This document shows positions 2,259 through 60,335 of a stretch of 64,000 bases of DNA, in pieces (position 1 is the stretch's first letter; each line of letters opens with the position of its first letter). The DNA comes from Candidatus Kaiserbacteria bacterium (GTDB lineage: Bacteria > Patescibacteriota > Minisyncoccia > Phycocordibacterales > UBA918): positions 219,386 through 283,385 of the forward strand of contig CP064968.1 in assembly GCA_016699245.1 (NCBI GenBank), written 5' to 3'. The position numbers and the translations under genes were made by a program. The notes under the pieces are model-generated. The model saw nothing but the letters and a program-made list of their open reading frames with translations. It was not told where the DNA came from and did no database searches.

Positions 2259-3518
2259 ATGCAGTCCACATTTCACAACAGTACATTTCCCAAAGACTTA
2301 GTTAAAGAAGTGAGTAAAAAAGCCCATGCATACAGACTAAAAATAGAAAAAGTGCAGGAAAGTGGTATTTTTGAACGTTCTGAGTCCTCACTCTGTATCG
2401 CGGGCGATGGAGCGTACCAGAAAGACATCAAGAAACGTCTCGCTCCATTCACAGGCACAAAACACGTTATTTTGGTTGCTATTGGCGGCTCAATGCAGGG
2501 TGTGCAAGCTGTATATGATGCATGTGTCAGTAAAGAAATTCCTCGATTGAGTATTGTTGACAGTATCGAAGAGAAGTACATAGAAGATATGCGCCGCATC
2601 ATTAGTGTTACCAAAGATGCACGTGACATTGTGCTTGTCGTAGTGAGTAAGTCAGGAACAACGACAGAGACTATGCTCAATGCACTTCACATCATTGGAC
2701 TTTGGGAAAAAAAGTTTGGTGAGGCATTTTTAAAACAAATTATTTTCATTGGCAATGAAGGCACACCGTTTCTCGAAGCAGGAGCAAAAAAAAATATACT
2801 GAGCTTTACGCTTCCACATTCTATTGGGGGAAGGTTTTCCGTTTTTTCTGCTGTAGGCGTTGTACCGCTCACTCTTCTGGGAATAAATATACCGCAGTTA
2901 CTGAAAGGTGCACTTGATGCGGTCAAAAGTGAGGCACTCACTCACGTTGAAGAAAGTGCAGTTACGCTTGCACTCCATGCATATTCTGGAGTGCACACAG
3001 TCAACTTTTTTTCTTTTAACCGACGACTTCGTTCTTGTGGTTTATGGTACCGTCAGCTACTCGCCGAAAGTACTGGTAAAAGCACTACAAAAGCAGGGAC
3101 CCCCTTCATGCATCAGTTGCTTCCTATTGTATCAACAAGTGCAGATTTACACTCTAGTGCAGAACTGTATTTAGGAGGCTATACGGGTATCTATACACAC
3201 TTTGTGTACTACACTGAACGCACGAGCGCACGAATGCCTCAGGTTCATTGGTTACTCGAACACCTTCCGTTTCTTAAAAACAGAAAATCGTCAGTCATAA
3301 AAGATATTATTACCGAAGGTGTGCTTCATGCATATAATGACCAAATGCTTCCGTATCGCTACACAAAGTTAGAAAAATGCACCGAGTACGAAGTGGGTTT
3401 TCTCCTTGCGTCACTCATGGCAGAAGTAATGTATATTGGATATCTCTTCAACATCGACACCTTCGACCAACCCAGTGTGGAATTTTATAAAAAGTATGTA
3501 AGAGCAGAATTGAGTTAG
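2259..3518 (+). CDS. pgi: Glucose-6-phosphate isomerase (short form)
   Basis: IGGSMQG, SKSGTTTET, GGRFSVFSAVG motifs. Confidence 0.85.
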   Translation: MQSTFHNSTFPKDLVKEVSKKAHAYRLKIEKVQESGIFERSESSLCIAGDGAYQKDIKKRLAPFTGTKHVILVAIGGSMQGVQAVYDACVSKEIPRLSIVDSIEEKYIEDMRRIISVTKDARDIVLVVVSKSGTTTETMLNALHIIGLWEKKFGEAFLKQIIFIGNEGTPFLEAGAKKNILSFTLPHSIGGRFSVFSAVGVVPLTLLGINIPQLLKGALDAVKSEALTHVEESAVTLALHAYSGVHTVNFFSFNRRLRSCGLWYRQLLAESTGKSTTKAGTPFMHQLLPIVSTSADLHSSAELYLGGYTGIYTHFVYYTERTSARMPQVHWLLEHLPFLKNRKSSVIKDIITEGVLHAYNDQMLPYRYTKLEKCTEYEVGFLLASLMAEVMYIGYLFNIDTFDQPSVEFYKKYVRAELS

Positions 3519-3519
3519 T

Positions 3520-4371
3520 ATGTATATTCTTTTTGACATCGGCGGCACCAAAACCCGAGTAGCATCAACAAACGACCTAGAGACAATTCTTCGCGTAGAA
3601 AAATTTAATACTCCACTCTCGTATGCCGAAGGTCTTGCGGCTATTGTGGCAGCCATAGAAACAGTGCGTGGAGGTGAGAGTGTGACCGCGATGGCGGGAG
3701 GTATTCGAGGACCTCTCAATCACGAAAAGACTGGAATTGTGAGCGAAAAAGTTTTGATGGACTGGGTTGGGCGCTCGATTACTGGCGACCTCAACCAAAA
3801 ATATCATGCACCCGTGTTTCTCGAAAACGATACCGCCATAGTTGGTCTTGGAGAGGTGCATTACGGTGCAGGGAAGGGAGCAGACATAGTGGCGTACCAC
3901 ACGGTGAGTACTGGGGTAGGGGGTGCACGATATGTGCATGGGCACATTGATGCAGTAAGTGTCGGATTTGAGCCTGGCCAACAGATTTTGGATATTGATA
4001 GAACTATACTTGGCAGTCATGTGTCTCCAACTCTGGAAAATATGGTGTCAGGCACTGCGCTCGAAAAACGAAAGGGAATGAAGCCATATGAAATATCTCA
4101 GGAAGATCATGTATGGGACGAGCTCGCGGGAATATTGGCATTTGGACTTAAAAACACCATTGTGTACTGGTCTCCAGACGTTATTGTACTCGGTGGTTCT
4201 ATGGTAATTGGTGACCCCCGTATTCTCCTCCCCGACATCATTCGTCATACTGAAGAGGCCCTGGGCGGGCTTCTTCTATGCCCTAAGATAGTCGATGCAA
4301 CCTTGAAAGATGAGGGTGGACTCTATGGTGCGATGGCACTCATCAAAGAAAAACAAGGCAACATAAAATAA
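3520..4371 (+). CDS. ROK-family sugar kinase (glucokinase-like)
   Basis: FDIGGTKTR N-terminus, LENDTAIVGLGE, ROK signature spacing. Confidence 0.7.
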   Translation: MYILFDIGGTKTRVASTNDLETILRVEKFNTPLSYAEGLAAIVAAIETVRGGESVTAMAGGIRGPLNHEKTGIVSEKVLMDWVGRSITGDLNQKYHAPVFLENDTAIVGLGEVHYGAGKGADIVAYHTVSTGVGGARYVHGHIDAVSVGFEPGQQILDIDRTILGSHVSPTLENMVSGTALEKRKGMKPYEISQEDHVWDELAGILAFGLKNTIVYWSPDVIVLGGSMVIGDPRILLPDIIRHTEEALGGLLLCPKIVDATLKDEGGLYGAMALIKEKQGNIK

Positions 4372-4402: not shown

Positions 4403-4430
4403 CTATAAATATAGACTGTCAAATAGTTGA
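4403..4430. terminator. Perfect 12-bp-arm inverted repeat (ATAGACTGTCAA-ATA-TTGACAGTCTAT) after the ROK gene; terminator or operator
   Basis: Read directly; followed by an AT-rich tract. Confidence 0.4.
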
Positions 4431-4608
4431 CAGTCTATATTTATAGTTATGTAATTTGATTTTTTCATTCAAAATGGTATACTTTTTATGGACGGCTTGT
4501 GGCTGTCTTTTTGTTTGGTTCGCCTCGGCGGGACATACAAAATGTATTCGTTAAGACTAATGGCTTATATTATCTAGTTTACTTACAGCAATAATTGCTG
4601 TATCGAAC

Positions 4609-5004
4609 ATGGGAGTAGTATCGGTAGCCGATACTGCATATGGGCACATTGCAACAAAAGAAGATCAAGTCACTGAAGTCCGGCTGGTTGGTGCGAACAC
4701 AGAAACGGCAGTTCGTTCCTACTTCAGTGATATACCCGTCATGATACAAATAGCGCGGTGTGAATCACAATTCAGACAAACGCTCGCTGACGGTACTGTT
4801 CTTAGAGGAAAGGTGGATCCCGCTGACACTGGGGTAATGCAAATCAATATGCGTTATCACGGAGAAGAAGCGAGGGAACTTGGCCTGAATCTCGAGGACA
4901 TGTACGACAATATGGCGTATGCTCGTGATCTCTATGAACGGCAAGGTACGCGACCATGGACTGCATCTGCAGCCTGTTGGTCACATACTATTGCAATGCG
5001 TTAA
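4609..5004 (+). CDS. Small SLT-domain lytic transglycosylase-like protein (no signal peptide)
   Basis: IARCESQF...GVMQIN resembles the SLT catalytic ES...GLMQ motif. Isolated between two hairpins. Confidence 0.5.
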   Translation: MGVVSVADTAYGHIATKEDQVTEVRLVGANTETAVRSYFSDIPVMIQIARCESQFRQTLADGTVLRGKVDPADTGVMQINMRYHGEEARELGLNLEDMYDNMAYARDLYERQGTRPWTASAACWSHTIAMR

Positions 5005-5007
5005 CAG

Positions 5008-5036
5008 AAAATCTCCCCATTTGGGGAGATTTTCTT
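5008..5036. terminator. Intrinsic terminator hairpin (AAAATCTCCCCA-TT-TGGGGAGATTTT), bidirectional-looking
   Basis: GC-rich stem flanked by A-run and T-run. Confidence 0.6.
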
Positions 5037-12278: not shown

Positions 12279-13352
12279 TCAAAATGCAATAGCAAGCAAA
12301 GTGCCAATAATCGCGAACACAAAACCAAGTATCCAATAGCGCATCGTCACCTTCTCTGCAGGCCAGCCCGTTGCCTCAAAGTGGTGATGGAGAGGTGCAA
12401 TAAGAAAGAGTTTTTTCTTACGAATTTTTTTTGAAAGTAATTGAAGTACATCCGAGAGCACGGTGAGTACAAGGAGAATCCCGATGATGGGAAGTATAGA
12501 TACACCTTCCCCACCTCCAATGGAGTCAGTCATAAATGCAACAATGGTGAGTGACATCGTGAGTGCCATGATGCCTGTTTCAGTCATGTAAAAACGTGCA
12601 GGAGGCACATTAAACCAAAGAAATGCGAGAATTCCTCCCACAATGGTCGCACAATACGCGGCTATGTCTATTTGGTTTTGATAGACCGCAATACCTGCAT
12701 ATGCGGTAAAAATAAACATGAACGTCCCGCCCGAAAGTCCATCAATACCATCGATGACGCTTGATGCATAAATAGCAATAGCAACAATTACAAAGAAAGG
12801 AATGAAGAACATACCGAGGTCGAGAGGTCCGTAGCCAATGAGTTGTATCGAGTGTACATCAAGTCTTTCATAGAACCACCAGCCGGCAAAAAGTGCCGTA
12901 AGGCTCACAACCATGAGTCTTTGTGAAAGGGGTAAACCGCCAGCAAAGTGTGTACCCGTGCCACGTACAACAAGAAAGTCGTCAAGAAACCCAACTGCTG
13001 CACCTACAAGGAGTGCAGAAAGCGGTAACCATGTTTGAGATCGACTGAGGAAATCGAGTGAGCCAAAAATTGAATCCGGGCAAATAAACTGCAAAATCCA
13101 AATAGAGAAAATAGTAAGGAGAACACTCGCCCAAATGACAATGCCGCCCATGCGTGGAGTGTTGGTATCACGCTTTTGGTGGAGCGCATCAAAAAGTGGT
13201 GTTTCTCCGCCACCATAGCCAGCACCTTTTCCTGGTTTTTTCTTCCACATTTCAAATTTGTACAAAAAGTGCGTGATGAGTGGCGTAATGAGAATACCAA
13301 AAATGAAAGCAATTGCTGTAGGTGCGAGGACTTTGATGATTGTAGTTTCCAT
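12279..13352 (-). CDS. mraY: Phospho-N-acetylmuramoyl-pentapeptide transferase
   Basis: VIDGIDGLSGG motif, polytopic. Confidence 0.9.
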   Translation of the reverse strand: METTIIKVLAPTAIAFIFGILITPLITHFLYKFEMWKKKPGKGAGYGGGETPLFDALHQKRDTNTPRMGGIVIWASVLLTIFSIWILQFICPDSIFGSLDFLSRSQTWLPLSALLVGAAVGFLDDFLVVRGTGTHFAGGLPLSQRLMVVSLTALFAGWWFYERLDVHSIQLIGYGPLDLGMFFIPFFVIVAIAIYASSVIDGIDGLSGGTFMFIFTAYAGIAVYQNQIDIAAYCATIVGGILAFLWFNVPPARFYMTETGIMALTMSLTIVAFMTDSIGGGEGVSILPIIGILLVLTVLSDVLQLLSKKIRKKKLFLIAPLHHHFEATGWPAEKVTMRYWILGFVFAIIGTLLAIAF

Positions 13353-15893: not shown

Positions 15894-16799
15894 TTAATGA
15901 ACAACGTTACATGACATATCCTTTTTAGCCCCGTCTATGGTTATGGGGACACGTTCACCCTTAAATATTCCATCTGCTGTAAAAGTAACTCCCCAAGTAA
16001 AACGCGAGTGCTCAGCAGGACAAATTCCAAAAGATGGATCAATTCCTGAAACTCTAAATTGGCTCGCACCACCTTTTGGAAAGATCACCTCATCAACTAA
16101 AGGTTTTGCATTCTTATAAAAAACAAACGAATCACCGTCCCAAATATCAACTTGGTATTCTTTTCCGAGTGCACTAATATCCCAAATAGGAATTCTCACA
16201 CTATTAAACTTCGGGCTTCCATCAAAGGCTCGCCAGATGTAGCCAACAGTAATATTTGATCCGAGTTGCCTCTCGCTTATAACTAATTCATTAATAGAAT
16301 TCTGAACTGTTTCATCAAAAATTATAGTGGATGTAGATATTGCCTCTGTTTCATTTTGTTCTTTCGAAATTGTAGATTCCTTTTTTTGAACAACGGGTTT
16401 ATCCATCGGTAACTCTGTTACAACTTTTTTCGATATAGAATTTTGAACTGTTTCATCAGTAACTATTGTTGATGTAGATACTGCCTCTGTTCTATTTTGT
16501 TCTTTTGTAATTGTAGATTCTCTCGTTTGAACAATGGGTTCATCCATTGGTAACTTTTCTACAACTTTTTCTGATGTTGTCTCATTAGAGTCATCTTGTC
16601 CTGAAAAATTTTGCTGTGTATTCGGTGTTACCGTGATTTCTGTTTGTGTATCCTTAGTGAAGATAAAATATATTAAAATCACTCCAAAAATTATTGCAGT
16701 AAGAAGGATTATCTGAACTAGATTTTTCATTTGATCCAATTTTACCACGAGCACGGCAATCAGAGTGCGCATCTTTCCCCATCGTATTGCATAGGTCAT
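15894..16799 (-). CDS. Hypothetical membrane-anchored/secreted protein with ~48-aa internal tandem repeat
   Basis: N-terminal TM; two ~144-bp DNA repeats (about 16287-16575) encode a repeated T/S/E-rich module. Confidence 0.45.
   Translation of the reverse strand: MTYAIRWGKMRTLIAVLVVKLDQMKNLVQIILLTAIIFGVILIYFIFTKDTQTEITVTPNTQQNFSGQDDSNETTSEKVVEKLPMDEPIVQTRESTITKEQNRTEAVSTSTIVTDETVQNSISKKVVTELPMDKPVVQKKESTISKEQNETEAISTSTIIFDETVQNSINELVISERQLGSNITVGYIWRAFDGSPKFNSVRIPIWDISALGKEYQVDIWDGDSFVFYKNAKPLVDEVIFPKGGASQFRVSGIDPSFGICPAEHSRFTWGVTFTADGIFKGERVPITIDGAKKDMSCNVVH
16287..16575. repeat. Intragenic tandem repeat, 2 x ~144 bp, ~80% identical
   Basis: Read directly in DNA and in the repeated peptide VVEKLPMDEPIVQ.../VVTELPMDKPVVQ... 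Confidence 0.55.
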
Positions 16800-33255: not shown

Positions 33256-33651
33256 TTAGGCGGGTTGGCCTTCTTGGATGAATGTTTGCATCCTCTTATT
33301 CAATAGATCATAGATGATCGCGAGCATTCCAAGATGGTCCTCTGTGACATCACCTTGCTTGTTTAACGCTTTGACCGATTCCAGAAAATCAAAAATCTCT
33401 GGCGCGGAATGACTCCACTTTGATGCCATTTCGCGAACTTCGGCGTCGTAAGGAGAACTTGTCACTGATGCATTATGACTTTCGTCGAGTTCACACACCA
33501 AGTCCTCGATGACATAAATGAACTTTGCAACAGTGAGCGTACCGCTTTTCATCTCCTCGATACGATGGTGTAACGACAAAGATGGTGAACCAGCAGCTTC
33601 TGCAAATGAAGCAAAGAAATCTACATCAACAGGGGTTAAAGAGTTGGCCAT
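33256..33651 (-). CDS. Hypothetical protein
   Basis: ORF with start at MANSL; no motif recognised. Confidence 0.35.
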   Translation of the reverse strand: MANSLTPVDVDFFASFAEAAGSPSLSLHHRIEEMKSGTLTVAKFIYVIEDLVCELDESHNASVTSSPYDAEVREMASKWSHSAPEIFDFLESVKALNKQGDVTEDHLGMLAIIYDLLNKRMQTFIQEGQPA

Positions 33652-33760
33652 GAGTACCTCCAAAATATGGTTGAAGTGAAAGTGTTTGAATTGAATCAGG
33701 AACTGAAGCAAATTTTATTTAATCACGATAATGGCGGAGCGTCAAGGTGCCCAAAAAATA

Positions 33761-34037
33761 ATGAGCGTGAGCGACTATATTTTTTGAGGCCTTCACTTTT
33801 TTATCTCCCCAGAGAAAAAAGTTAAGAAGCGACTGAACTTTGCAGAATCCAGAATATCTCCCATACCAATGACTCATACTCAGATGAGCGTGAGCGACTA
33901 TATTTTTTGAGGCCTTCACTTTTTTATCTCCCCAGAGAAAAAAGTTAAGAAGCGACTGAACTTTGCAGAATCCAGAATATCTCCCATACCAATGACTCAT
34001 ACTCAGATGAGCGTGAGCGACTATATTTTTTGAGGCC
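33761..34037. repeat. Perfect tandem duplication of a 123-bp unit (2.25 copies), intergenic
   Basis: Unit ATGAGCGTGAGCGACTATATTTTTTGAGGCCTTCAC...CAATGACTCATACTCAG repeated at 33761, 33884 and partially at 34007 with 100% identity. Confidence 0.85.
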
Positions 34038-34068
34038 ATGGGGCAGAAAAATATCGCTCCGGTCGTCG

Positions 34069-34099
34069 AAAAGAACAAATGCCCCGAAGGGGGCATTTG
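34069..34099 (-). terminator. Intrinsic terminator after rpsI
   Basis: Hairpin AAATGCCCC-GAAG-GGGGCATTT with T-run on the minus strand. Confidence 0.55.
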
Positions 34100-34101
34100 T
34101 T

Positions 34102-34509
34102 TTATCTTTTCGACCACTGTGGGCTTTTGCGGGCTTTTTTTAGACCGAACTTCTTTCGTTCTACGGCGCGAGGGTCGCGCTTGAGGAAGCCAGCTTTCTT
34201 GAGTGGGATGCGGCGCTCTGCCTTCTCTTTCAAGAGTGCACGTGCGATTCCTAGTCTAATGGCATCTGATTGTGAACTGAGTCCACCTCCTTGCACGTGT
34301 GCACTGATTTCGTAGTTCTCGATTCCTGCATCTGCAGTTTCAAGTACGGAGAGCAAATTTTTCTGGAGTGTTGCCGCGGTGAAGTACTCAGCAAGTGCCT
34401 TTTCATTCACGATTACTCGAGTCTCATTTGCTTTAGTGACACGAACACGTGCGGTTGCAGTTTTGCGTCGTCCAATTCCTTCAATATATTGTTTCGTTGC
34501 CATAGTCAT
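34102..34509 (-). CDS. rpsI: 30S ribosomal protein S9
   Basis: C-terminal ...KKARKSPQWSKR. Confidence 0.9.
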   Translation of the reverse strand: MTMATKQYIEGIGRRKTATARVRVTKANETRVIVNEKALAEYFTAATLQKNLLSVLETADAGIENYEISAHVQGGGLSSQSDAIRLGIARALLKEKAERRIPLKKAGFLKRDPRAVERKKFGLKKARKSPQWSKR

Positions 34510-34859
34510 TATTCAGTTACTTCGAGATTATGGAGACGTGGTGTCTGTAGTTTGTTCTTAGGGAGCATACCCTTTACCACACGCGTTACCACTTCTGCGT
34601 AGCCAAGTCGCTTGCCAAGGTGATCGAGTGTCTCCACACGACGACCTCCTGGGTATCCAGAGTAACTCTGAAACTCCTCCTTTCCACGCTTCTCAGAAAT
34701 ATCGAGTTTAGAAGCGTTGGTTACCTTTACGGTGACAGGCTCGACGAGGTTCTTGGCGACATGTGTCGTATTCTTTCCAAGCAAAATTGACGCAACTTCT
34801 GTTGCTACGCGACCGAGTCGCTTTCCTGTTGCATCAATGATAAATTCTTTCTTTTCCAT
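34509..34859 (-). CDS. rplM: 50S ribosomal protein L13
   Basis: IIDATGKRLGRVATEVASIL; start trimmed to MEKKEF to clear rplQ. Confidence 0.85.
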   Translation of the reverse strand: MEKKEFIIDATGKRLGRVATEVASILLGKNTTHVAKNLVEPVTVKVTNASKLDISEKRGKEEFQSYSGYPGGRRVETLDHLGKRLGYAEVVTRVVKGMLPKNKLQTPRLHNLEVTE

Positions 34860-34863
34860 ATCG

Positions 34864-35217
34864 TTATACAAGTTCAATGTACGCTTCTGTGCGCCCTGCC
34901 TTTGTTTCACCTAATTTAATAATGCGTGTATATCCCCCGTTACGCTCTGTGTATCTTTTTGCCACATCACTAAACAGCTTTGAGACCACATTGGTGTGTG
35001 GTTCTCCCAAAATACTCATCACGAGACGGCGAGATGCGACAGTGTCGTTTTTACCCTTTGTGATAAGTTTCTCGACATACGGGCGAAGTTCTTTCGCTTT
35101 TGCCTCAGTGGTGTGTATCTTTCCGTGTTCAATGAGGGAAAGTGCGAGACCACGAAGAAGCGCGGTGCGCTGACTGCGTGATCGTCCGAATGTTCTGTTT
35201 TGGCTGTGGTGTCGCAT
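34864..35217 (-). CDS. rplQ: 50S ribosomal protein L17
   Basis: MRHHSQNRTFGRSRSQRTALLRGL. Confidence 0.9.
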   Translation of the reverse strand: MRHHSQNRTFGRSRSQRTALLRGLALSLIEHGKIHTTEAKAKELRPYVEKLITKGKNDTVASRRLVMSILGEPHTNVVSKLFSDVAKRYTERNGGYTRIIKLGETKAGRTEAYIELV

Positions 35218-41286: not shown

Positions 41287-43245
41287 TTATTCGAGCACTG
41301 CTTTTATGCGCCTTACACCACGAGAGGAAGACTCTTCTTTTTGAATTTTAAAGGTGCCGGTGATTGCGCCTGTCGTTTCTACGTGTGGGCCACCACAGAG
41401 TTCGCGAGAGTACACGACACCGGTATCGCCTACGATTGAATAGACCTTTACTTGATCGGGATACTTCTCCCAGAAACTTCCTTCGATACTTGGGTCGTTT
41501 TCTGCTTCAGTTTTTGAGAGTGTGTCAACACGTACTTTTGCGTTGTGTGTAATTGCTTCATTCACAAATGCCTCGACACGCGTGAGTACATCTGGAGAAA
41601 CCTTTTCATTATAGGTGAAGTCAAAACGAAGACGTTCACCAGTAATATTAGAGCCCGCCTGATGCACACCCGTCCCGAGTTCATTTCGAAGTCCCGCAAG
41701 AAGAAGATGGGTGGCGGTATGGTACATGACTACAGTATCTGAATGGTCGGCAAGTCCTCCTTTAAACTTTTGCTCTGCACCCGCACGCGAGAGTTCACGA
41801 TGTTCCTCCATGAGTTTTTTGAATTCACCCATCGCAACAGTCATACCCCGCTCTTTTGCAATTTCTATAGTGAGTTCAATCGGGAAGCCGTAGGTAGTAA
41901 AGAGATTAAAAGCATTTTCGCCCGTAATAAACTTTTGAGGGATAATTTTCTTGCTTCTATCCACAACCACCTTTCCTTCTTCACGTTTTATGGGGAGAGT
42001 GACTTTGAGTGCAATTTTATTGAATTCTTTCAACCCATTTTCCAGTGTTTTTCTAAACTGCACTTCTTCTCCATGGATGGTGTCGATAATATCGGCTTCA
42101 TGTTCAGCTATCTTTGTGTAATGCTCCTTGTACGTATCAATAACACTTTTTGCAAGAAGTTTTAATTCACCGTTTGGGACACCTACAATATCTGCATAGC
42201 GTACCGCTCTTCGCAAAAGACGACGTGTAAAGTAACCCTGCTCTGAGTTGGCAGGATAAATTGCCTCGCTTATCATAAAAACTGCTCCGCGAATATGATC
42301 GGTAATGACGCGGAACGCCATCTGATGCTCTGTATACTTTTTACCCGAGAGTTCCTCAATTTTAGTAACTACATTTTGAAGGAGGTCGATGGTGAACACA
42401 TCTCCATTACCATTAGCTGCCGCAGCCATGCGCTCGAGTCCACCACCAAAATCAACATTCTGCTTTGGAAGTTTTTGGAACGTACCGTCTTCGGCTTTGA
42501 TGTATTCGATAAAGACAGAATTACCAATTTCAAGAAAACGTCCGCAATCACAATTGGGATGGCAGTGTGGGCCAAATTTTTCATCGTGGGGTGTCCCAAA
42601 GTCATAAAACATCTCAGTATCAGGACCGCCTATTTCACCAATAGGCATTTTCTCTGGCTTTCCTGCTCTGCTCCACCAATTTTTTGATGCATCGTAATAG
42701 AAAATGCGTTCGCCGTCCTTCATGCCACGTTCCCCACCCTCCCTTTCGGAACCCATGAATGCAACGCCATTGGTGATATTACGCACAGCGAAAAGTCCTT
42801 GCCAGAGTTCAGCAGCCACGGTGTCGCGGGGCACGTTGTTTGTTTCATCGCCTGCAAATACCGACACATAGATATTTTCCGGATTGAGTTTGATTTCCTC
42901 TACAAGAAATCCGTAGATCCAGGGAATTTGCTCGTTTTTGAAGTAGTCACCTAAAGACCAGTTGCCCAACATCTCGAAGAATGTGGTGTGGCGATTGTCA
43001 CCAACTTCCTCGATGTCCTCTGCGCGAAAACACTTTTGTGAATCGGCGAGGCGTGTGCCCATAGGGTGTTCTTCTCCCATAAGAAAAGGCACGAGTGGTT
43101 GCATGCCACTACCGGTAAAAAGCGTGGTTGGGTCATTCTCAGGAATGAGCGCTGAGGATGGGATAATCGCATGCCCCCGCTTTTCCATATACGCAAGATA
43201 TTTTGCTCTAATTTCATTTCCAGACATAGTGAGGACACTATACAA
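41287..43245 (-). CDS. alaS: Alanyl-tRNA synthetase, short form (catalytic + tRNA-recognition + editing domains, no C-terminal C-Ala domain)
   Basis: N-terminal FTGSGMQPLVPF, editing-site MYHTATHLL...C...GGPHV; only 652 aa. Confidence 0.85.
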   Translation of the reverse strand: MYSVLTMSGNEIRAKYLAYMEKRGHAIIPSSALIPENDPTTLFTGSGMQPLVPFLMGEEHPMGTRLADSQKCFRAEDIEEVGDNRHTTFFEMLGNWSLGDYFKNEQIPWIYGFLVEEIKLNPENIYVSVFAGDETNNVPRDTVAAELWQGLFAVRNITNGVAFMGSEREGGERGMKDGERIFYYDASKNWWSRAGKPEKMPIGEIGGPDTEMFYDFGTPHDEKFGPHCHPNCDCGRFLEIGNSVFIEYIKAEDGTFQKLPKQNVDFGGGLERMAAAANGNGDVFTIDLLQNVVTKIEELSGKKYTEHQMAFRVITDHIRGAVFMISEAIYPANSEQGYFTRRLLRRAVRYADIVGVPNGELKLLAKSVIDTYKEHYTKIAEHEADIIDTIHGEEVQFRKTLENGLKEFNKIALKVTLPIKREEGKVVVDRSKKIIPQKFITGENAFNLFTTYGFPIELTIEIAKERGMTVAMGEFKKLMEEHRELSRAGAEQKFKGGLADHSDTVVMYHTATHLLLAGLRNELGTGVHQAGSNITGERLRFDFTYNEKVSPDVLTRVEAFVNEAITHNAKVRVDTLSKTEAENDPSIEGSFWEKYPDQVKVYSIVGDTGVVYSRELCGGPHVETTGAITGTFKIQKEESSSRGVRRIKAVLE

Positions 43246-47085: not shown

Positions 47086-47164
47086 AGCTTTCAGTATATC
47101 ATCATGTATCGTAGTACAAAAAATCCTGCATGTGCAGGATTTTTTGTACTACACGTTAATGGTG

Positions 47165-53234: not shown

Positions 53235-55616
53235 TCAAGCCTCTCCTATCAGATTAATAATTTTGTTTTGGATATATACCACTCGAGTTATGTTTGCGGG
53301 CAATTTTGATGCGAGAGTTTCATCTGCTTTAAGCACGGCAAGTACCTCGGATTCCGCCGAATCTATGGGGATAATGATGGTTCCGCGCATCTTTCCATTG
53401 ATTTGAACACTCAAAGTAACACTACTTTCGATTAAATATGTAGGGTTTGAGGCAGGCCAGTTAGACATGTGGATAGAACCACTATTCCCCGCTTCATACC
53501 ACAATTCTTCAGTAATGTGTGGTGCAAATGGGGCAAGTAACCGAAGAAAGAGTAAATATGAATTCTTGGTCAAACCTAATTTTTCGGCATGATTGATGAA
53601 AATCATGAGTGCACTGATAGCAGTATTGAACTTATATACTGCTATATCAGCCGACACTTTTTCAATCGTCTTGTGAAGTAGGGATGTTGTCTCATGTGAT
53701 TCAGTCTCACGCACATGCTCAGCAAGGCCATACACACGCTCGAGGAATCGACGAAGCCCCGCAATGCCTCCCATGTCCCAGGGATAGTTGGCGAGTTCGC
53801 CATACGGACCCATGAAGGCAAGATACATCTTCACCGTGTCAGCACCAAGAATTTTAACTTGTTCATCGGGGTCGACCACGTTGCCTTTTGACTTACTCAT
53901 CTTGTTGCCGTCGGGACCGAGGACAAGTCCACGATTGATGCGCATCTTGTACGGCTCAGGTGAGGTCACAAGATCAAGGTCAAAGAGTGCCTTTTGCCAG
54001 AAGCGTGAATAGAGCACGTGCATCGTGGTGTGCTCAGAACCACCAAAGTACACATCGACTGGCATCCAGGTTTTTTGTGCTTCAAGAGATGCGGGGACTT
54101 CAGCATTCTGAGTATCGAGATAGCGCAAAAAGTACCACGAAGAGTCTACAAACGTATCCATAGTCTCGACTTCAGGAGTCCAACCTTCACCAAAGATACG
54201 TGTCACGCGTTCACGAAGTTCAACACTTTTCGCAAGTGGCGGTTCGCCCGTGGGGGTGAAGTCGACATCGGTGGGTAGGTGCCATGGTAGGTGTTCCTTA
54301 GGAATCGGGTGTGGTGTACCTTCTTTGTCATACACAATAGGAATTGGTACCCCCCAATAGCGCTGTCGACCAATAGACCAATCACGAAGGCGATAAGTAT
54401 TCGTAAGTTCCCCACCAACTTTCAGAGTAATAGCACCCTTAGCCTCTTCCGAGTCCATGCCCGTAAATTCTCCAGAGTTGATCAGTGTATCCGAAAGAGT
54501 AAATGGAAGTTCTTCATTACCTTTTATTACCTGCACAATAGGAAGTGTAAATTTCTTTGCAAAGGCAAAGTCTCTCTCGTCGTGTGCGGGTACTGCCATA
54601 ATGGCACCGGTGCCGTAGCCTTTGAGCACATAGTCAGCAATGAATACAGGGATACTTTTGCCCGTAGCGGGATTAGTGGTGGTGATGCCTGTGAGGCACA
54701 CGCCCGTCTTCTCCTTTTCTACTTTTGTACGAAGCATTTCATCCTTCTGCGATGCTTCTTTTATATACGCCTCTACTTCTGCCCAGTTTTGGATGACTTC
54801 TTTGTTCTTGAGGACAAGGTCGTGCTCGGGTGCTAAGACCACGTAGGTGGCACCGTAGAGCGTGTCAGGGCGCGTGGTAAAGATATCGAGTGTGTCTCCG
54901 GTAGAGAGAGTGAAAGGGATTTTGGCACCCTTTGAACGCCCAATCCACTGTCGTTGTGCTTCCTTAATGGGTTCGGGCCACGCAAGCGTATCAAGATCAT
55001 CGATGAGTCTATCAGCATAATCAGTAATTTTGAGCATCCACTGCGTCATGTCTTTTTTTATAATGGTGTTGCCGCAACGCTCACAGGTGTTGCTACTTGT
55101 GACTTGCTCGTTTGCAATCACGGTATTGCATGCAGGACACCAATTCACCACACCCTTACCGCGATACGCAATTCCCTTTTCAAAAAACTGTGTAAACATC
55201 CACTGCGTCATCTTGAAGTATTCTGGGTCAGTAGAACTTACAGAAACGTCCCATGAAAACGCATTACCCATGCTCTCGAGTTGCTTCTTCATGTATGCGA
55301 TATTGGATTCAGTCCATGCTTTTGGGTCAAGTTTGTTTTTAATAGCAGCATTTTCAGCAGGAAGTCCAAACGCATCAAAACCAATTGGGAAAAGCACTTG
55401 CTTTCCCTGCATGCGTCTCGCACGAACGTAGATGTCTACCACCGCAAAAGCAAACCAGTGCCCAACATGAAGATTGCCCGATGGATACGGCCATTCGACG
55501 AGTACATACTCTTTTTCTTTGTTTGTGTCGCGTGCACCGAGGTTGTATATCCCAGATTCTTTCCAGGATTTCTGCCACTTCTGTTCTATTTCCTCGTGAT
55601 TGAACTTTTTATGCAT
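53235..55616 (-). CDS. leuS: Leucyl-tRNA synthetase
   Basis: PYPSGNLHVGH (HIGH), KMSKSKGN (KMSKS), CP1 editing domain. Confidence 0.9.
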   Translation of the reverse strand: MHKKFNHEEIEQKWQKSWKESGIYNLGARDTNKEKEYVLVEWPYPSGNLHVGHWFAFAVVDIYVRARRMQGKQVLFPIGFDAFGLPAENAAIKNKLDPKAWTESNIAYMKKQLESMGNAFSWDVSVSSTDPEYFKMTQWMFTQFFEKGIAYRGKGVVNWCPACNTVIANEQVTSSNTCERCGNTIIKKDMTQWMLKITDYADRLIDDLDTLAWPEPIKEAQRQWIGRSKGAKIPFTLSTGDTLDIFTTRPDTLYGATYVVLAPEHDLVLKNKEVIQNWAEVEAYIKEASQKDEMLRTKVEKEKTGVCLTGITTTNPATGKSIPVFIADYVLKGYGTGAIMAVPAHDERDFAFAKKFTLPIVQVIKGNEELPFTLSDTLINSGEFTGMDSEEAKGAITLKVGGELTNTYRLRDWSIGRQRYWGVPIPIVYDKEGTPHPIPKEHLPWHLPTDVDFTPTGEPPLAKSVELRERVTRIFGEGWTPEVETMDTFVDSSWYFLRYLDTQNAEVPASLEAQKTWMPVDVYFGGSEHTTMHVLYSRFWQKALFDLDLVTSPEPYKMRINRGLVLGPDGNKMSKSKGNVVDPDEQVKILGADTVKMYLAFMGPYGELANYPWDMGGIAGLRRFLERVYGLAEHVRETESHETTSLLHKTIEKVSADIAVYKFNTAISALMIFINHAEKLGLTKNSYLLFLRLLAPFAPHITEELWYEAGNSGSIHMSNWPASNPTYLIESSVTLSVQINGKMRGTIIIPIDSAESEVLAVLKADETLASKLPANITRVVYIQNKIINLIGEA

Positions 55617-55678
55617 ACACAAAACAAGCAACTGTTAATTTGTTTCATTATGCCGTTAAAACGGAATATGTCCAGTTA

Positions 55679-56599
55679 TTACATCAGGGGTTTCGTATCG
55701 AGCGGTGCCACTTTGCGTTCAAAACACCATTCACCTGCTCCGTGAGTCCAATTCATGTTTCCTTTTATGTATGAGTCATCCACATACATAGGCTGTGCAA
55801 ATTGCTGTTGCTCTGCTTTAGTTGATTCGTTTGCAAAGGTGGCACAAAGTTCATATGTTGTGGGACCAGTGACGCGGTATTCGTATGCTGTTCTTCCTTC
55901 AGGGGCTACAGGGATCTCGATACCCTGGAAGGCTTCAGTAAGAGTTTGGGGGAGTGTGTTGTCAGTACTGTAAAACGATTCAATATTTGACTGTATCAGC
56001 GAAAGATCACTTGTCTGTGTCGAATCGAGACGATACTCACGCACTTGATTTGGAGTCTGCGTATTCATAAAACCAAGTACCAGTGCTCCAATTACAATCA
56101 CCGTTGCACCAGCACCATACCATACAGACTCACGCTCGTGAGCCTGCCAATATCCCTTTGCGTCAAAAAGGTAGTACACAAATGCGGTAGTAACCACCAC
56201 AAAGAAAGAAAGTGCTTTGAGGGCAAAGCGAATGGTGAGTTCACCATTAAGGAATCCATTGATAACACTTACAAGGTCACCCAAAATTGCTGCACCCCCC
56301 ACGAGAAGTGAAAGATAGATGAGCCACTTGGTAAGCATGAGGTATGTACCATGTTCATTTCGACGGATGATGTTCACCAGTCGTGTGAGTACCAGATACA
56401 CCGGGAAAAAGACGATGAGCATTGCAATACTAAAACGGAGTGTCGAAGCAGCGCTCTCTACCTCCCAATAACCCTGTGCAGCGTCTGGATAATGTGCAGT
56501 AATAACACTGAACATGAGCATGATAAGACCAACGATAGTTACGTATAAAGAGACGAGTGAGCCCAATTGAAGGGCAAAATTTTTAGCTGTGTTTTCCAT
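55679..56599 (-). CDS. Hypothetical polytopic membrane protein
   Basis: ~6 TM helices; no motif. Confidence 0.4.
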   Translation of the reverse strand: MENTAKNFALQLGSLVSLYVTIVGLIMLMFSVITAHYPDAAQGYWEVESAASTLRFSIAMLIVFFPVYLVLTRLVNIIRRNEHGTYLMLTKWLIYLSLLVGGAAILGDLVSVINGFLNGELTIRFALKALSFFVVVTTAFVYYLFDAKGYWQAHERESVWYGAGATVIVIGALVLGFMNTQTPNQVREYRLDSTQTSDLSLIQSNIESFYSTDNTLPQTLTEAFQGIEIPVAPEGRTAYEYRVTGPTTYELCATFANESTKAEQQQFAQPMYVDDSYIKGNMNWTHGAGEWCFERKVAPLDTKPLM

Positions 56600-56630
56600 A
56601 ATATATAAATTGTGTGCTTATTTTGGGAAA

Positions 56631-56900
56631 AGTAAAGAACCCAACTCCGGAGGAGTTGGACCAGGGGTTCTTTGCTAGCATAGGAATCGGCCACCGCCGA
56701 TGCTATTTTTATGTCGCTAAGCGCGACGGACTAGTAAAGAACCACACTCTGAAAGAGTATGACCAGGGTTCTTTGCTAGCATAGGAATCGGCCACCGCCG
56801 ATGCATTTTTTATGTCGCTAAGCGCGACAGACTAGTAAAGAACCCAACACTCAAAAGTGTAGGACCGGGGGTTCTTTGTTAGTAACTGAAGTCATTTTTA
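56631..56900. repeat. Array of three ~101-bp structured units (A 56631-56732, B 56733-56833, C 56834-~56900): variable hairpin + conserved terminator-like hairpin
   Basis: Each unit = AGTAAAGAACC + variable palindromic ~17 nt + ACCAGGGGTTCTTT, then (A, B) GCTAGCATAGGAATCGGCCACCGCCGATGCTATTTTT and GTCGCTAAGCGCGAC. The variable tips are each self-complementary. Confidence 0.75.
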
Positions 56901-56903
56901 CAC

Positions 56904-56940
56904 TTACCGTATACGTAACAGGTGTTACGTATACGGTAAG
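56904..56940. promoter_or_regulatory. Perfect 18-bp-arm inverted repeat CTTACCGTATACGTAACA-GG-TGTTACGTATACGGTAAG; candidate operator upstream of the plus-strand gene at 57037
   Basis: Read directly; a TATACT -10-like box follows ~70 bp downstream. Confidence 0.6.
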
Positions 56941-57036
56941 GTGGTCCGGGTGAGAATTTGAGGTTAATACTTGTAGAAGACTACACCCAGACAGAATCAA
57001 GGATATGTTATACTCTCAACCTAATCCCCCACATAT

Positions 57037-57306
57037 ATGAAATCAGAAGATATGCAGAAGGCGCCAAAATTGTTTTGTGAAAGCATTAAGGTTGGCTTCA
57101 CCCCAGAGTATTTTGTTATTGGACTTAGCTCTGGCTCACAATCGTCAATTTTTTCACTCACTCCCGGACATACAAAACGTTTGCAGCAGTACCTGACGCA
57201 CGAAATTTCACAATTTGAAAAAGCGCATGGTGAGATTAAATCTGAATGGAACCCTAATGTCGTCAGTCCTGTACAAAATGTGATTCCTCCGAATCAGATG
57301 AGTTAA
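57037..57306 (+). CDS. Small hypothetical protein (89 aa)
   Basis: ORF preceded by a promoter-like TATACT and followed by a strong terminator. Confidence 0.35.
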   Translation: MKSEDMQKAPKLFCESIKVGFTPEYFVIGLSSGSQSSIFSLTPGHTKRLQQYLTHEISQFEKAHGEIKSEWNPNVVSPVQNVIPPNQMS

Positions 57307-60041: not shown

Positions 60042-60335
60042 TCATTTCTTTTTCTTTCTTGCTCCCTGTGATTTCTTTTTCTTTCTTGCTCCCTGTGATT
60101 TCACGAGTGTTTCTTTTTCTTCTTTTTTTAGTTTCTTGAGTTGATGTTCGCGCACCTGTGCCTCGCTCCGCGAGGCACAGGACTCCACATACACCACACT
60201 TATGGGAATTTTAGCCTTCGTATACTTCGCCCCTACCTTCCCCTCTTTGTGCTCTTTAAAGCGACGCTCCACATCAGTCGTCGCTCCCGTATAGAGTGAC
60301 CCATCGCTACAGCGAATCATGTATACCAACCACAT
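60042..60335 (-). CDS. GIY-YIG nuclease-family small protein with duplicated basic C-terminal tail
   Basis: LVYMIRCSDGSLYTGATTDVERRFKEH (GIY-YIG core); C-terminal SQGARKKKK x2 from a 27-bp tandem DNA repeat (60045-60098). Confidence 0.6.
   Translation of the reverse strand: MWLVYMIRCSDGSLYTGATTDVERRFKEHKEGKVGAKYTKAKIPISVVYVESCASRSEAQVREHQLKKLKKEEKETLVKSQGARKKKKSQGARKKKK

Follow-up and report, generated by a model that had tools for sequence, protein, structure and literature searches.

In the genome of Candidatus Kaiserbacteria bacterium, a 437-bp spacer separates the divergent genes for a DUF5671 membrane protein and a DUF3467 protein (contig CP064968.1; the whole stretch of 64,000 nucleotides analysed, positions 219,386 to 283,385, is referred to as the window). 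The spacer holds a tandem array of hairpin-forming units followed by a perfect palindrome. Array and palindrome are a real, non-random feature, and we consider it probable that they are copies of a lineage-specific, non-coding, modular hairpin repeat family akin to repetitive extragenic palindromic sequences and bacterial interspersed mosaic elements (REP/BIME), BOX, Correia and miniature inverted-repeat transposable elements (MITEs). Past the DUF3467 gene, the minus strand carries a thioredoxin-like gene and then typA, with GIY-YIG and YchF genes among the wider neighbours in the window. A DUF5671 promoter-like site abuts the edge of the array, and its flank is conserved in a relative in which the site is empty (locus L010; the loci of relatives carry labels of this form). 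The extended -10 of the DUF3467 gene keeps the form TGnTATAMT in relatives, whether or not they have the array, and lies downstream of both array and palindrome. The array is therefore part of neither 5' untranslated region (UTR). An earlier note, made from the letters of the window, had reported a TATACT box about 70 bp beyond the palindrome; the box exists as part of this extended -10, at a slightly shorter distance (Table 1).

Tandem Repeats Finder places a tandem array at 56631-56882, with a period of 101, 2.5 copies, 86% matches and a score of 359, in agreement with the units A, B and partial C of about 101 bp that had been described for this divergent intergenic region. With one mismatch allowed, an 11-mer of the conserved frame has six matches in the window against a chance expectation of 1.3, and five of these fall inside the array. 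The family is built from four modules: H1, with a constant lower stem, a 3' bulge GGACCRGG and a variable tip; H2, with a 6-bp stem, a CWCC loop and a T-rich tail; H3, a short or a long hairpin; and a linker with a perfect palindrome. In unit A, the lower stem of H1 is formed by AGTAAAGAACC and GGTTCTTTGCT, in its extended form (CT)AGTAAAGAACC/GGTTCTTTGCT(AG), with one conserved T.G pair and a 7-nt 3' bulge, GACCAGG, and carries the tip CAACTCC-GGA-GGAGTTG. The tips CAACTCCGGAGGAGTTG (A), ACACTCTGAAAGAGTAT (B) and CAACACTCAAAAGTGTAG (C) are all self-complementary, with one mismatch each in B and C. The claim that tips vary and still pair with themselves also holds beyond the window, in 16 H1 copies from more than 10 loci. 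Folding into three hairpins scores z = -3.6 for unit A and z = -4.4 for unit B relative to shuffles, and unit C is matched by the covariance model at 56836-56878 with 31.6 bits. The small third hairpin is likewise present, with a loop of 5 nt (TAAGC) and not TAAG as first given. Neighbouring units meet head to tail at a GRACTAGTAAAG junction, and in every array all units follow one another on a single strand, with no alternating orientation.

The palindrome was correctly described as perfect, its arms (56903-56920 and 56923-56940) being complementary at 18/18 positions around a 2-nt centre, GG; it starts one position before the 56904 originally given, and its fold has a z-score of -6.0 against shuffles.

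Table 1 Coordinates of the array, the palindrome and the flanking features in the window.
Feature	Position	Strand	Description
LeuRS gene	53235-55631	-	
DUF5671 membrane protein gene	55679-56599	-	
DUF5671 promoter-like site TTCCCA-18-TATATT	56600-56629	-	promoter scan; left spacer edge, outside the repeat
AGTAAAG	56631-56637	+	left junction or insertion target; doubles as 5' end of the unit A H1 lower stem
Unit A	56631-56732	+	three hairpins, H1, H2 and H3
Unit A H1	56631-56676	+	fold, inverted repeat I12, covariation across copies
Unit A H2, ATCGGC-CACC-GCCGAT	56686-56701	+	terminator-like by scan; T-rich linker follows at 56702-56712
Unit A H3, short form, GTCGC-TAAGC-GCGAC	56713-56727	+	fold
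Junction GGACTAGTAAAG after unit A H3	56728-56739	+	
Unit B	56733-56833	+	H1 56733-56777, H2 56787-56802, H3 56814-56828, junction AGACT
Unit C, partial, H1 only	56834-56880	+	tip CAACACT-CAAA-AGTGTAG; lower stem ends GTT
Linker AGTAACTGAAGTCATTTTTACA, 22 nt	56881-56902	+	between last H1 and palindrome; matches (A)AGTGAGTTTTGACA of relatives
Perfect palindrome CTTACCGTATACGTAACA-GG-TGTTACGTATACGGTAAG	56903-56940	.	terminal module of the repeat family
Extended -10 TGTTATACT of DUF3467 gene	57006-57014	+	right spacer edge, outside the repeat; 65 bp past the palindrome
DUF3467 gene	57037-57306	+	

Exact-pattern scans for the H1 frame identified eight further contigs (five genome contigs and three metagenome contigs), and copies at the orthologous site were gathered via lookups around DUF5671 homologues. 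The orthologous DUF3467/DUF5671 spacer carries units in L007, L014, L015, L017, L018 and L005/L006. Other copies occupy non-orthologous sites, upstream of typA (L002), downstream of pheT (L004) and upstream of groES (L009), and in L008 a unit lies directly after the stop codon of a 42-aa open reading frame (ORF). This amounts to at least five non-homologous intergenic sites in the clade, and at least two separate loci are found in a single metagenome-assembled genome (MAG), CAYRMF01 (L004; L005/L006). MAG labels vary (Kaiserbacteria, Saccharibacteria); TypA of L002 is 89% identical to TypA of the window, which places the carriers in one narrow clade of the candidate phyla radiation (CPR) despite the differing labels. 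For the window itself, the genes around the array and the labels carried by related contigs indicate a CPR/Patescibacteria bacterium. The orientation of units relative to neighbouring genes is inconsistent, with the unit antisense to both neighbours in L002 and convergent in L004. Contigs end inside units in L001, L003, L004, L005, L006 and L019, which fits repeats. Searches with nhmmer and the covariance model turned up no further copies, either in the window or across 167 kb of related loci; a weak match at L017:1514-1681 proved to be an ordinary terminator. Neither blastn of the array and palindrome against phage and plasmid collections nor three pattern scans of viral contigs gave a match. 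Rfam has no family at gathering threshold anywhere in the window, so that no known Rfam family accounts for the units, and with E up to 10 allowed the best hit in 56400-57200 (E = 4.1) is far below threshold. In the collection of papers searched, no description of such repeats or MITEs in CPR bacteria was found.

A comparison of the orthologous spacers points to a probable insertion site. In L010, whose DUF5671 protein is 85% identical to that of the window, the spacer is only 81 bp long, array and palindrome are both absent, and the empty site reads ...GGTAAAAGTAAAG|TGTTAAATATATATGCTATACT... (AGTAAAG|TGTT), with a single AGTAAAG and both promoters intact. The more distant outgroups L021 and L023 have GTAAAG alone at the array site. 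Carriers, by comparison, start exactly at GTAAAG|AACC... and finish with ...ACTAGTAAA(G). L013 holds a single long hairpin module flanked on both sides by AGTAAAG, and L017 one unit between GTAAAG and GTAAAT, directly before the promoter. These loci show a duplicated target in carriers and a single target at the empty site. The unit upstream of typA is found in L002 only and is missing from the window. The window ORF at 41287-43245, a candidate for a further empty-site comparison, is not pheT.

Spacer content differs in every strain. The window has 2.5 units and the palindrome; L007 has two units and a different long hairpin, with no palindrome; L014 has one unit, half an H1, the palindrome and another palindrome; L015 has an IS30-like insertion inside H1, 1.5 units and two palindromes; and L018 has H1, linker and palindrome only. 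The additional perfect palindrome of L014 (TGAGTTTTAAAATA/TATTTTAAAACTCA, positions 850-885), absent from the window, lies between the main palindrome and the DUF3467 promoter. The long hairpin modules of L007 (430-560) and L013 (3880-3960) have a conserved loop, (AAAACCCAGACC[AC]AA[AG]CCCAACC), on stems of 25-27 bp that are completely different between both genomes; the L013 copy ends in GGAACTAGTAAAG like H3, and the module is probably a long H3 variant, judging from this similarity. In MAG CAYRMF01 the array spacer is expanded (L005 6245-7470 and L006 1-700), contigs break inside modules, and two extra genes, for an EEP-family nuclease and a 92-aa ORF, are each bounded by repeat modules. 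Decay is also observed: half of the last H1 is gone in L014, and the L015_2 and L009_2 stems pair poorly. The content differing in every strain, together with the decayed stems, is not the behaviour of a regulator of the flanking genes.

The first H1 of L015 is split exactly between its 5' arm GTAAAGAACC and the tip by an IS30-like element of about 1.08 kb (2890-4000; also in L016) with an HTH_38 transposase gene and an apparent CC duplication. Insertion sequences (IS) that target palindromic repeats are known for REP elements. It is the only insertion sequence seen; its ends are unrelated to the repeat, and no parent insertion sequence with matching ends was observed.

Pairwise identities do not follow the loci, and copies are homogenised between loci of one genome. 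Within a single MAG, L005_1 of the orthologous spacer shares 98% identity with L004_2 of the pheT locus; L005_1 also shares 97% with L003_1, against only 62-66% with the window units at the orthologous locus. Three subfamilies (short H3, long H3 and long tip) cut across locus orthology. Movement or gene conversion among dispersed copies leaves such a signature.

In the alignment fitted to the model, 91.4% of cells are paired versus 78.7% in shuffles, and 16 of 23 pairs change on both sides; none of 500 shuffles reaches the observed values and no slid register comes close, with the reservation that this alignment leans towards structure and includes weak hits. The hairpins described in the earlier note are real. 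The H2 stem occurs in eight distinct versions, all Watson-Crick bar one mismatch, and the long H3 forms of relatives retain the outer stem and a TTCA/TTTC internal loop. The conserved parts are the unpaired ones, namely the bulge GGACCRGG, the purine linker AGC-WRARGA, the H2 loop CWCC, the TTCA/TTTC of long H3 and the junction.

Such a pattern could also arise if the units were tandem small RNA genes, one of the candidates in the earlier note. They would encode structured RNAs about 75-135 nt long, a multi-copy trans-acting or protein-binding family. H1 would then be the functional body, with constant scaffold and variable tip, H2 with its T-tract a weak terminator, and processing would occur at the ACUAG junction. 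The covarying stems, and single-stranded motifs that stay conserved while the stems vary, agree with this. A conserved U.G position in H1, present in 14 of 24 alignment rows, stabilises the plus strand; H1 as a whole has 263 Watson-Crick and 21 G.U pairs, and the plus strand is favoured by 42 kcal/mol summed over 16 copies. Moreover, a T-rich tract follows H2 on the same strand in all copies, and the L008 copy is probably transcribed, to judge by its position between a stop codon and a real terminator. Strand preference is, however, not consistent across the modules: H2 (65 Watson-Crick pairs, no G.U) favours the minus strand by 19 kcal/mol, and both H3 (185 Watson-Crick, 12 G.U) and the palindrome (112 Watson-Crick and 2 G.U, both in a degenerate copy) are neutral. 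G.U pairs are thus nearly absent from H2 and the palindrome. The promoter scan detected no plus-strand promoter-like site in front of arrays or inside units. The scan for terminators does pick up the hairpin and T-run of H2 in units A and B, as had been noted, but the T-run is not conserved among related units and we do not regard H2 as a true terminator. With copies lost or decayed in close relatives, no Rfam match and the inconsistent orientation towards neighbouring genes, tandem small RNA genes are an unlikely explanation. Three further candidates were rejected: a mini-ORF in H3 (ATG TCG CTA AGC GCG ACG GAC TAG), the frame of which is not kept in L007 and the ATG of which is lacking in long-H3 units; an internal promoter TTGCTA ... 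TATATA, with a spacing of 25-26 bp; and the TTGACA of the linker as a -35, for want of a suitably spaced -10.

Stems that stay near-perfect while their sequence changes freely are expected of DNA palindromes whose arms correct each other by template switching, and flipping of the loop is a known behaviour of DNA hairpins. It is also possible that the hairpin is needed in single-stranded DNA or in RNA. Guides or fold-back copying would be expected to leave third copies of the long hairpin arms, and none were present in the sequences compared.

The window, L014, L015 and L018 each show the order H1, linker, palindrome, and L005 shows it twice (L005a, L005b). Six of the seven palindrome copies have perfect arms of 16-18 bp. 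The arms differ through compensated changes, three between the window and L014 (DUF5671 94% identical) and one between both L005 copies, with the inner part GYAACA and the outer part CTTAYC conserved. The centre is only ever GG (four copies) or CC (three copies) within the same flanks, which indicates that the palindrome flips. It is a recurrent module of the same repeat family.

The palindrome and the units had alternatively been considered a multi-site regulatory region, and the palindrome might be seen as a stand-alone operator. Under such cis-regulation of the divergent genes for DUF5671 and DUF3467, a dimeric regulator would use the palindrome as its operator, and the units would serve as multiple binding sites or as a leader RNA. 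Array and palindrome do lie upstream of DUF3467 in the window, L014, L015, L018 and L005, and parts of the arms are conserved as described. But L010, L013, L017 and L007 retain both genes and promoters without the palindrome, L010 without any of it, and the arms have different sequences even in strains with 94% identity in the protein next door. The units also occur beside typA, pheT and groES, and one H1-linker-palindrome composite of L005 lies downstream of the 3' end of an unrelated gene, that of the EEP-family nuclease. The array lies upstream of the DUF3467 extended -10 and hence outside the 5' UTR, and a DUF3467 riboswitch or leader was rejected on this ground and for the relatives in which the array is missing. 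We therefore regard cis-regulation of the two genes as very improbable.

Recombination sites, either integron-like (attC-like) or of another site-specific system, are a further explanation, in which small cassettes would be delimited by H1 and the 18-2-18 palindrome, acting as folded or dimer-bound sites of crossover. With its conserved base, unpaired one-sided spacer, occasional extrahelical A, variable tip and arms ending AAC/GTT, H1 has the look of a folded attC; the two extra genes of MAG CAYRMF01 are each bounded by modules, and the 2-bp asymmetric centre of the palindrome occurs in both orientations. The attC core consensus is RYYYAAC ... GTTRRRY with crossover at G|TT, and is missed by the arms AAAGAAC / GTTCTTT. 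Furthermore, the 55-80 bp between H1 copies contain no ORF, the boundary of the empty site is in the 5' arm (GTAAAG|AACC) and not at G|TT of the 3' arm, and no locus examined contains a gene for an integrase or recombinase. On these grounds this explanation appears very improbable. Somewhat less doubtful, while still distinctly unlikely, is the broader idea that an undescribed CPR system, nucleic-acid-guided or structure-specific, uses the units as its recognition modules, these being either a new class of structured, protein-binding RNA or folded single-strand recombination sites. In the former case, the scaffold (GGACCRGG bulge, CWCC loop, UUCA/UUUC internal loop) could bind a protein and the hairpins of free sequence diversify; in the latter, the sites would mediate gene turnover, as suggested by the module-bounded CAYRMF01 genes and the flip-flop palindrome.

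The best reading is that of a repeat family gained, lost and reshuffled among closely related ultra-small CPR bacteria, and not a conserved regulatory RNA. We infer that a trans-acting enzyme would recognise a folded single strand by means of the unpaired motifs, which are conserved on hairpins whose own sequence is free. A non-autonomous unit would insert 3' of GTAAAG, and as its own end recreates this target, new units would stack head to tail into arrays. Unequal recombination between junctions would then account for array expansion, contraction and clean loss. Stems may stay nearly pure Watson-Crick through a requirement for the hairpin, or through the repair of quasi-palindromes by arm-to-arm template switching, and the GG/CC centre of the palindrome might flip through hairpin-mediated inversion. 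In the window, the array would fill the sole dispensable stretch between two divergent core promoters, and its effect on the flanking genes is probably incidental.

A number of points weigh against this reading. No transposase, recombinase, integrase, HUH or Nop gene is adjacent to any copy examined, so that mobility is inferred from the distribution of copies. Pfam scans covered three array neighbours, 10 further ORFs of the window's approximately 70 and eight ORFs of other loci, and among the array-adjacent genes covered by these scans and by the genes called at the loci of relatives, no gene for a RAYT (Y1 HUH transposase) was seen. The whole unit is without terminal inverted repeats, as its ends AGTAAAGAACC... 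and ...GCGACGGACT are not complementary and inverted arms exist only within H1 taken alone. The right-end direct repeat is often imperfect (AGTTAAA in L002, AGTAGAC in L008). The 64-kb window has a single locus and the exact-match scans of very large collections returned eight contigs only, so copy number may be low; contig breaks may stem from strain heterogeneity and not from copy number. The orthologous locus is explained by a single old insertion followed by rearrangement, repeated insertion there being unsupported. Lastly, the conserved unpaired motifs and the one conserved U.G pair in H1 would also suit a functional RNA.

Elsewhere in the window, several other repeats and palindromes were observed. 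A 123-bp unit is repeated 2.3 times with 100% identity at 33761-34037, within a run of small minus-strand ORFs (33256-34910), which points to a very recent duplication or to an artefact of assembly. Two copies of a 141-bp tandem repeat at 16294-16570 (84% identity), inside the minus-strand ORF 15894-16799, are probably an internal protein repeat, and a perfect 27-bp repeat (2.2 copies, 60044-60102) lies at the 3' end of the minus-strand GIY-YIG domain gene (60042-60335). A perfect 20/20 palindrome, CTATAAATATAGACTGTCAA-atag-TTGACAGTCTATATTTATAG, at 4403-4446 in the spacer before the plus-strand gene at 4609 has TTGACA in each arm and is unrelated in sequence to the array-associated palindrome. 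Perfect palindromes between A-runs and T-runs at 47111-47152 (20/20) and 5006-5035 (14/14) look like bidirectional terminators; long perfect hairpins serve this genome as terminators. The region 12329-13003 is covered by a MraY-like ORF, and the scan for transfer RNA (tRNA) and transfer-messenger RNA found neither, with no tRNA gene in the whole window.

The small, compact genomes of CPR/Patescibacteria are usually portrayed as having few repeats and little mobile DNA. Here, a dynamic repeat family in the CPR would move between intergenic sites, stack, break assemblies, attract an insertion sequence and, in one relative, mark a spacer that holds extra genes. Genome plasticity and strain variation in these bacteria could be usefully tracked with it as a marker. 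It is also a warning for the discovery of non-coding RNA: stem covariation resembles the conservation of RNA structure and fits DNA palindromes evolving in concert as well. If a partner protein exists, the conserved unpaired motifs offer a direct handle for finding it.

A comparison with known systems helps to place the family. Clustered regularly interspaced short palindromic repeats (CRISPR) have direct repeats of 23-50 nt and unique, non-palindromic spacers of similar size, whereas the constant part is here about 85 nt and the variable part 14-33 nt and self-complementary; the earlier dismissal of a CRISPR array is upheld. In the TIGR-Tas systems (tandem interspaced guide RNA), arrays consist of alternating 8-12-nt repeats with 9-nt spacers or of stem-loops with box C/D motifs (Faure et al. 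2025, PMC12045711). These systems are present in CPR bacteria, and their stem-loop type, with tandem stem-loops and variable palindromic stems, bears a likeness to the units (PMC12045711), the variable tips of which would act as spacers in a guide-RNA array of either kind. However, the period of 101-135 nt compares with about 36 nt for TIGR units, making the units about three times larger. No RUGAUGA/CUGA box C/D motifs are conserved, alternating repeats of the TIGR kind are lacking, and no Tas (Nop-domain) or Cas gene is found among the neighbours. The variable parts are fully self-paired, with no third copy of any long arm in the sequences compared. A guide array is therefore largely refuted and retains next to no credibility.

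In the case of integron attC sites and their clusters lacking integron integrases (CALINs), the likeness is one of architecture, with a conserved paired base, an unpaired spacer, an extrahelical base and a variable terminal hairpin, structure being conserved over sequence. CALINs lack intI. Unlike attC arrays, the window has no ORF cassettes, no integrase was seen, the core consensus is absent and the junction falls on the opposite arm. BOX elements of Streptococcus pneumoniae (boxA, boxB(n), boxC) are similarly modular, with variable tandem modules, strong predicted structure, an intergenic, non-coding nature and no transposase of their own. The modules here differ by including a perfect flip-flop palindrome and by hypervariable hairpin sequences, and we presume the BOX sequences themselves to be unrelated to this family. 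MITEs such as Correia of Neisseria and bcr1 of the Bacillus cereus group share small size, a non-coding nature, insertion polymorphism, short direct repeats on the flanks at a preferred target and near-identical intragenomic copies; in contrast to these, the unit has no terminal inverted repeats spanning it and no known parent insertion sequence, and tandem stacking at a regenerated junction would be unusual for MITEs.

The REP/BIME elements of proteobacteria go with RAYT transposases. REP/BIME-like structured repeats were one of three candidate identities in the earlier note and provide the best fit of these. The earlier note had set as a contrary outcome a dispersed repeat with tips unpaired elsewhere; the repeat is indeed dispersed, but its tips are self-complementary elsewhere too. 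REP/BIME are short imperfect palindromes dispersed over many intergenic sites of a genome, and dispersal is likewise seen here, over at least five sites in the clade. Both kinds are short hairpin intergenic repeats, dispersed and clustered, with compensated stem changes and strain-variable occurrence, and both are sometimes targeted by insertion sequences, here the IS30-like element in H1. Unlike REP/BIME, the present units measure 101-135 bp, comprise three different hairpins, run head to tail without alternating, have no GTAG motif and no RAYT gene seen near copies, and reside in a CPR host. The family is thus a member of neither REP/BIME, BOX nor MITEs, though these are the closest kinds, and is best filed within the known class of dispersed hairpin-forming intergenic repeats, as a new family in an unusual host group.

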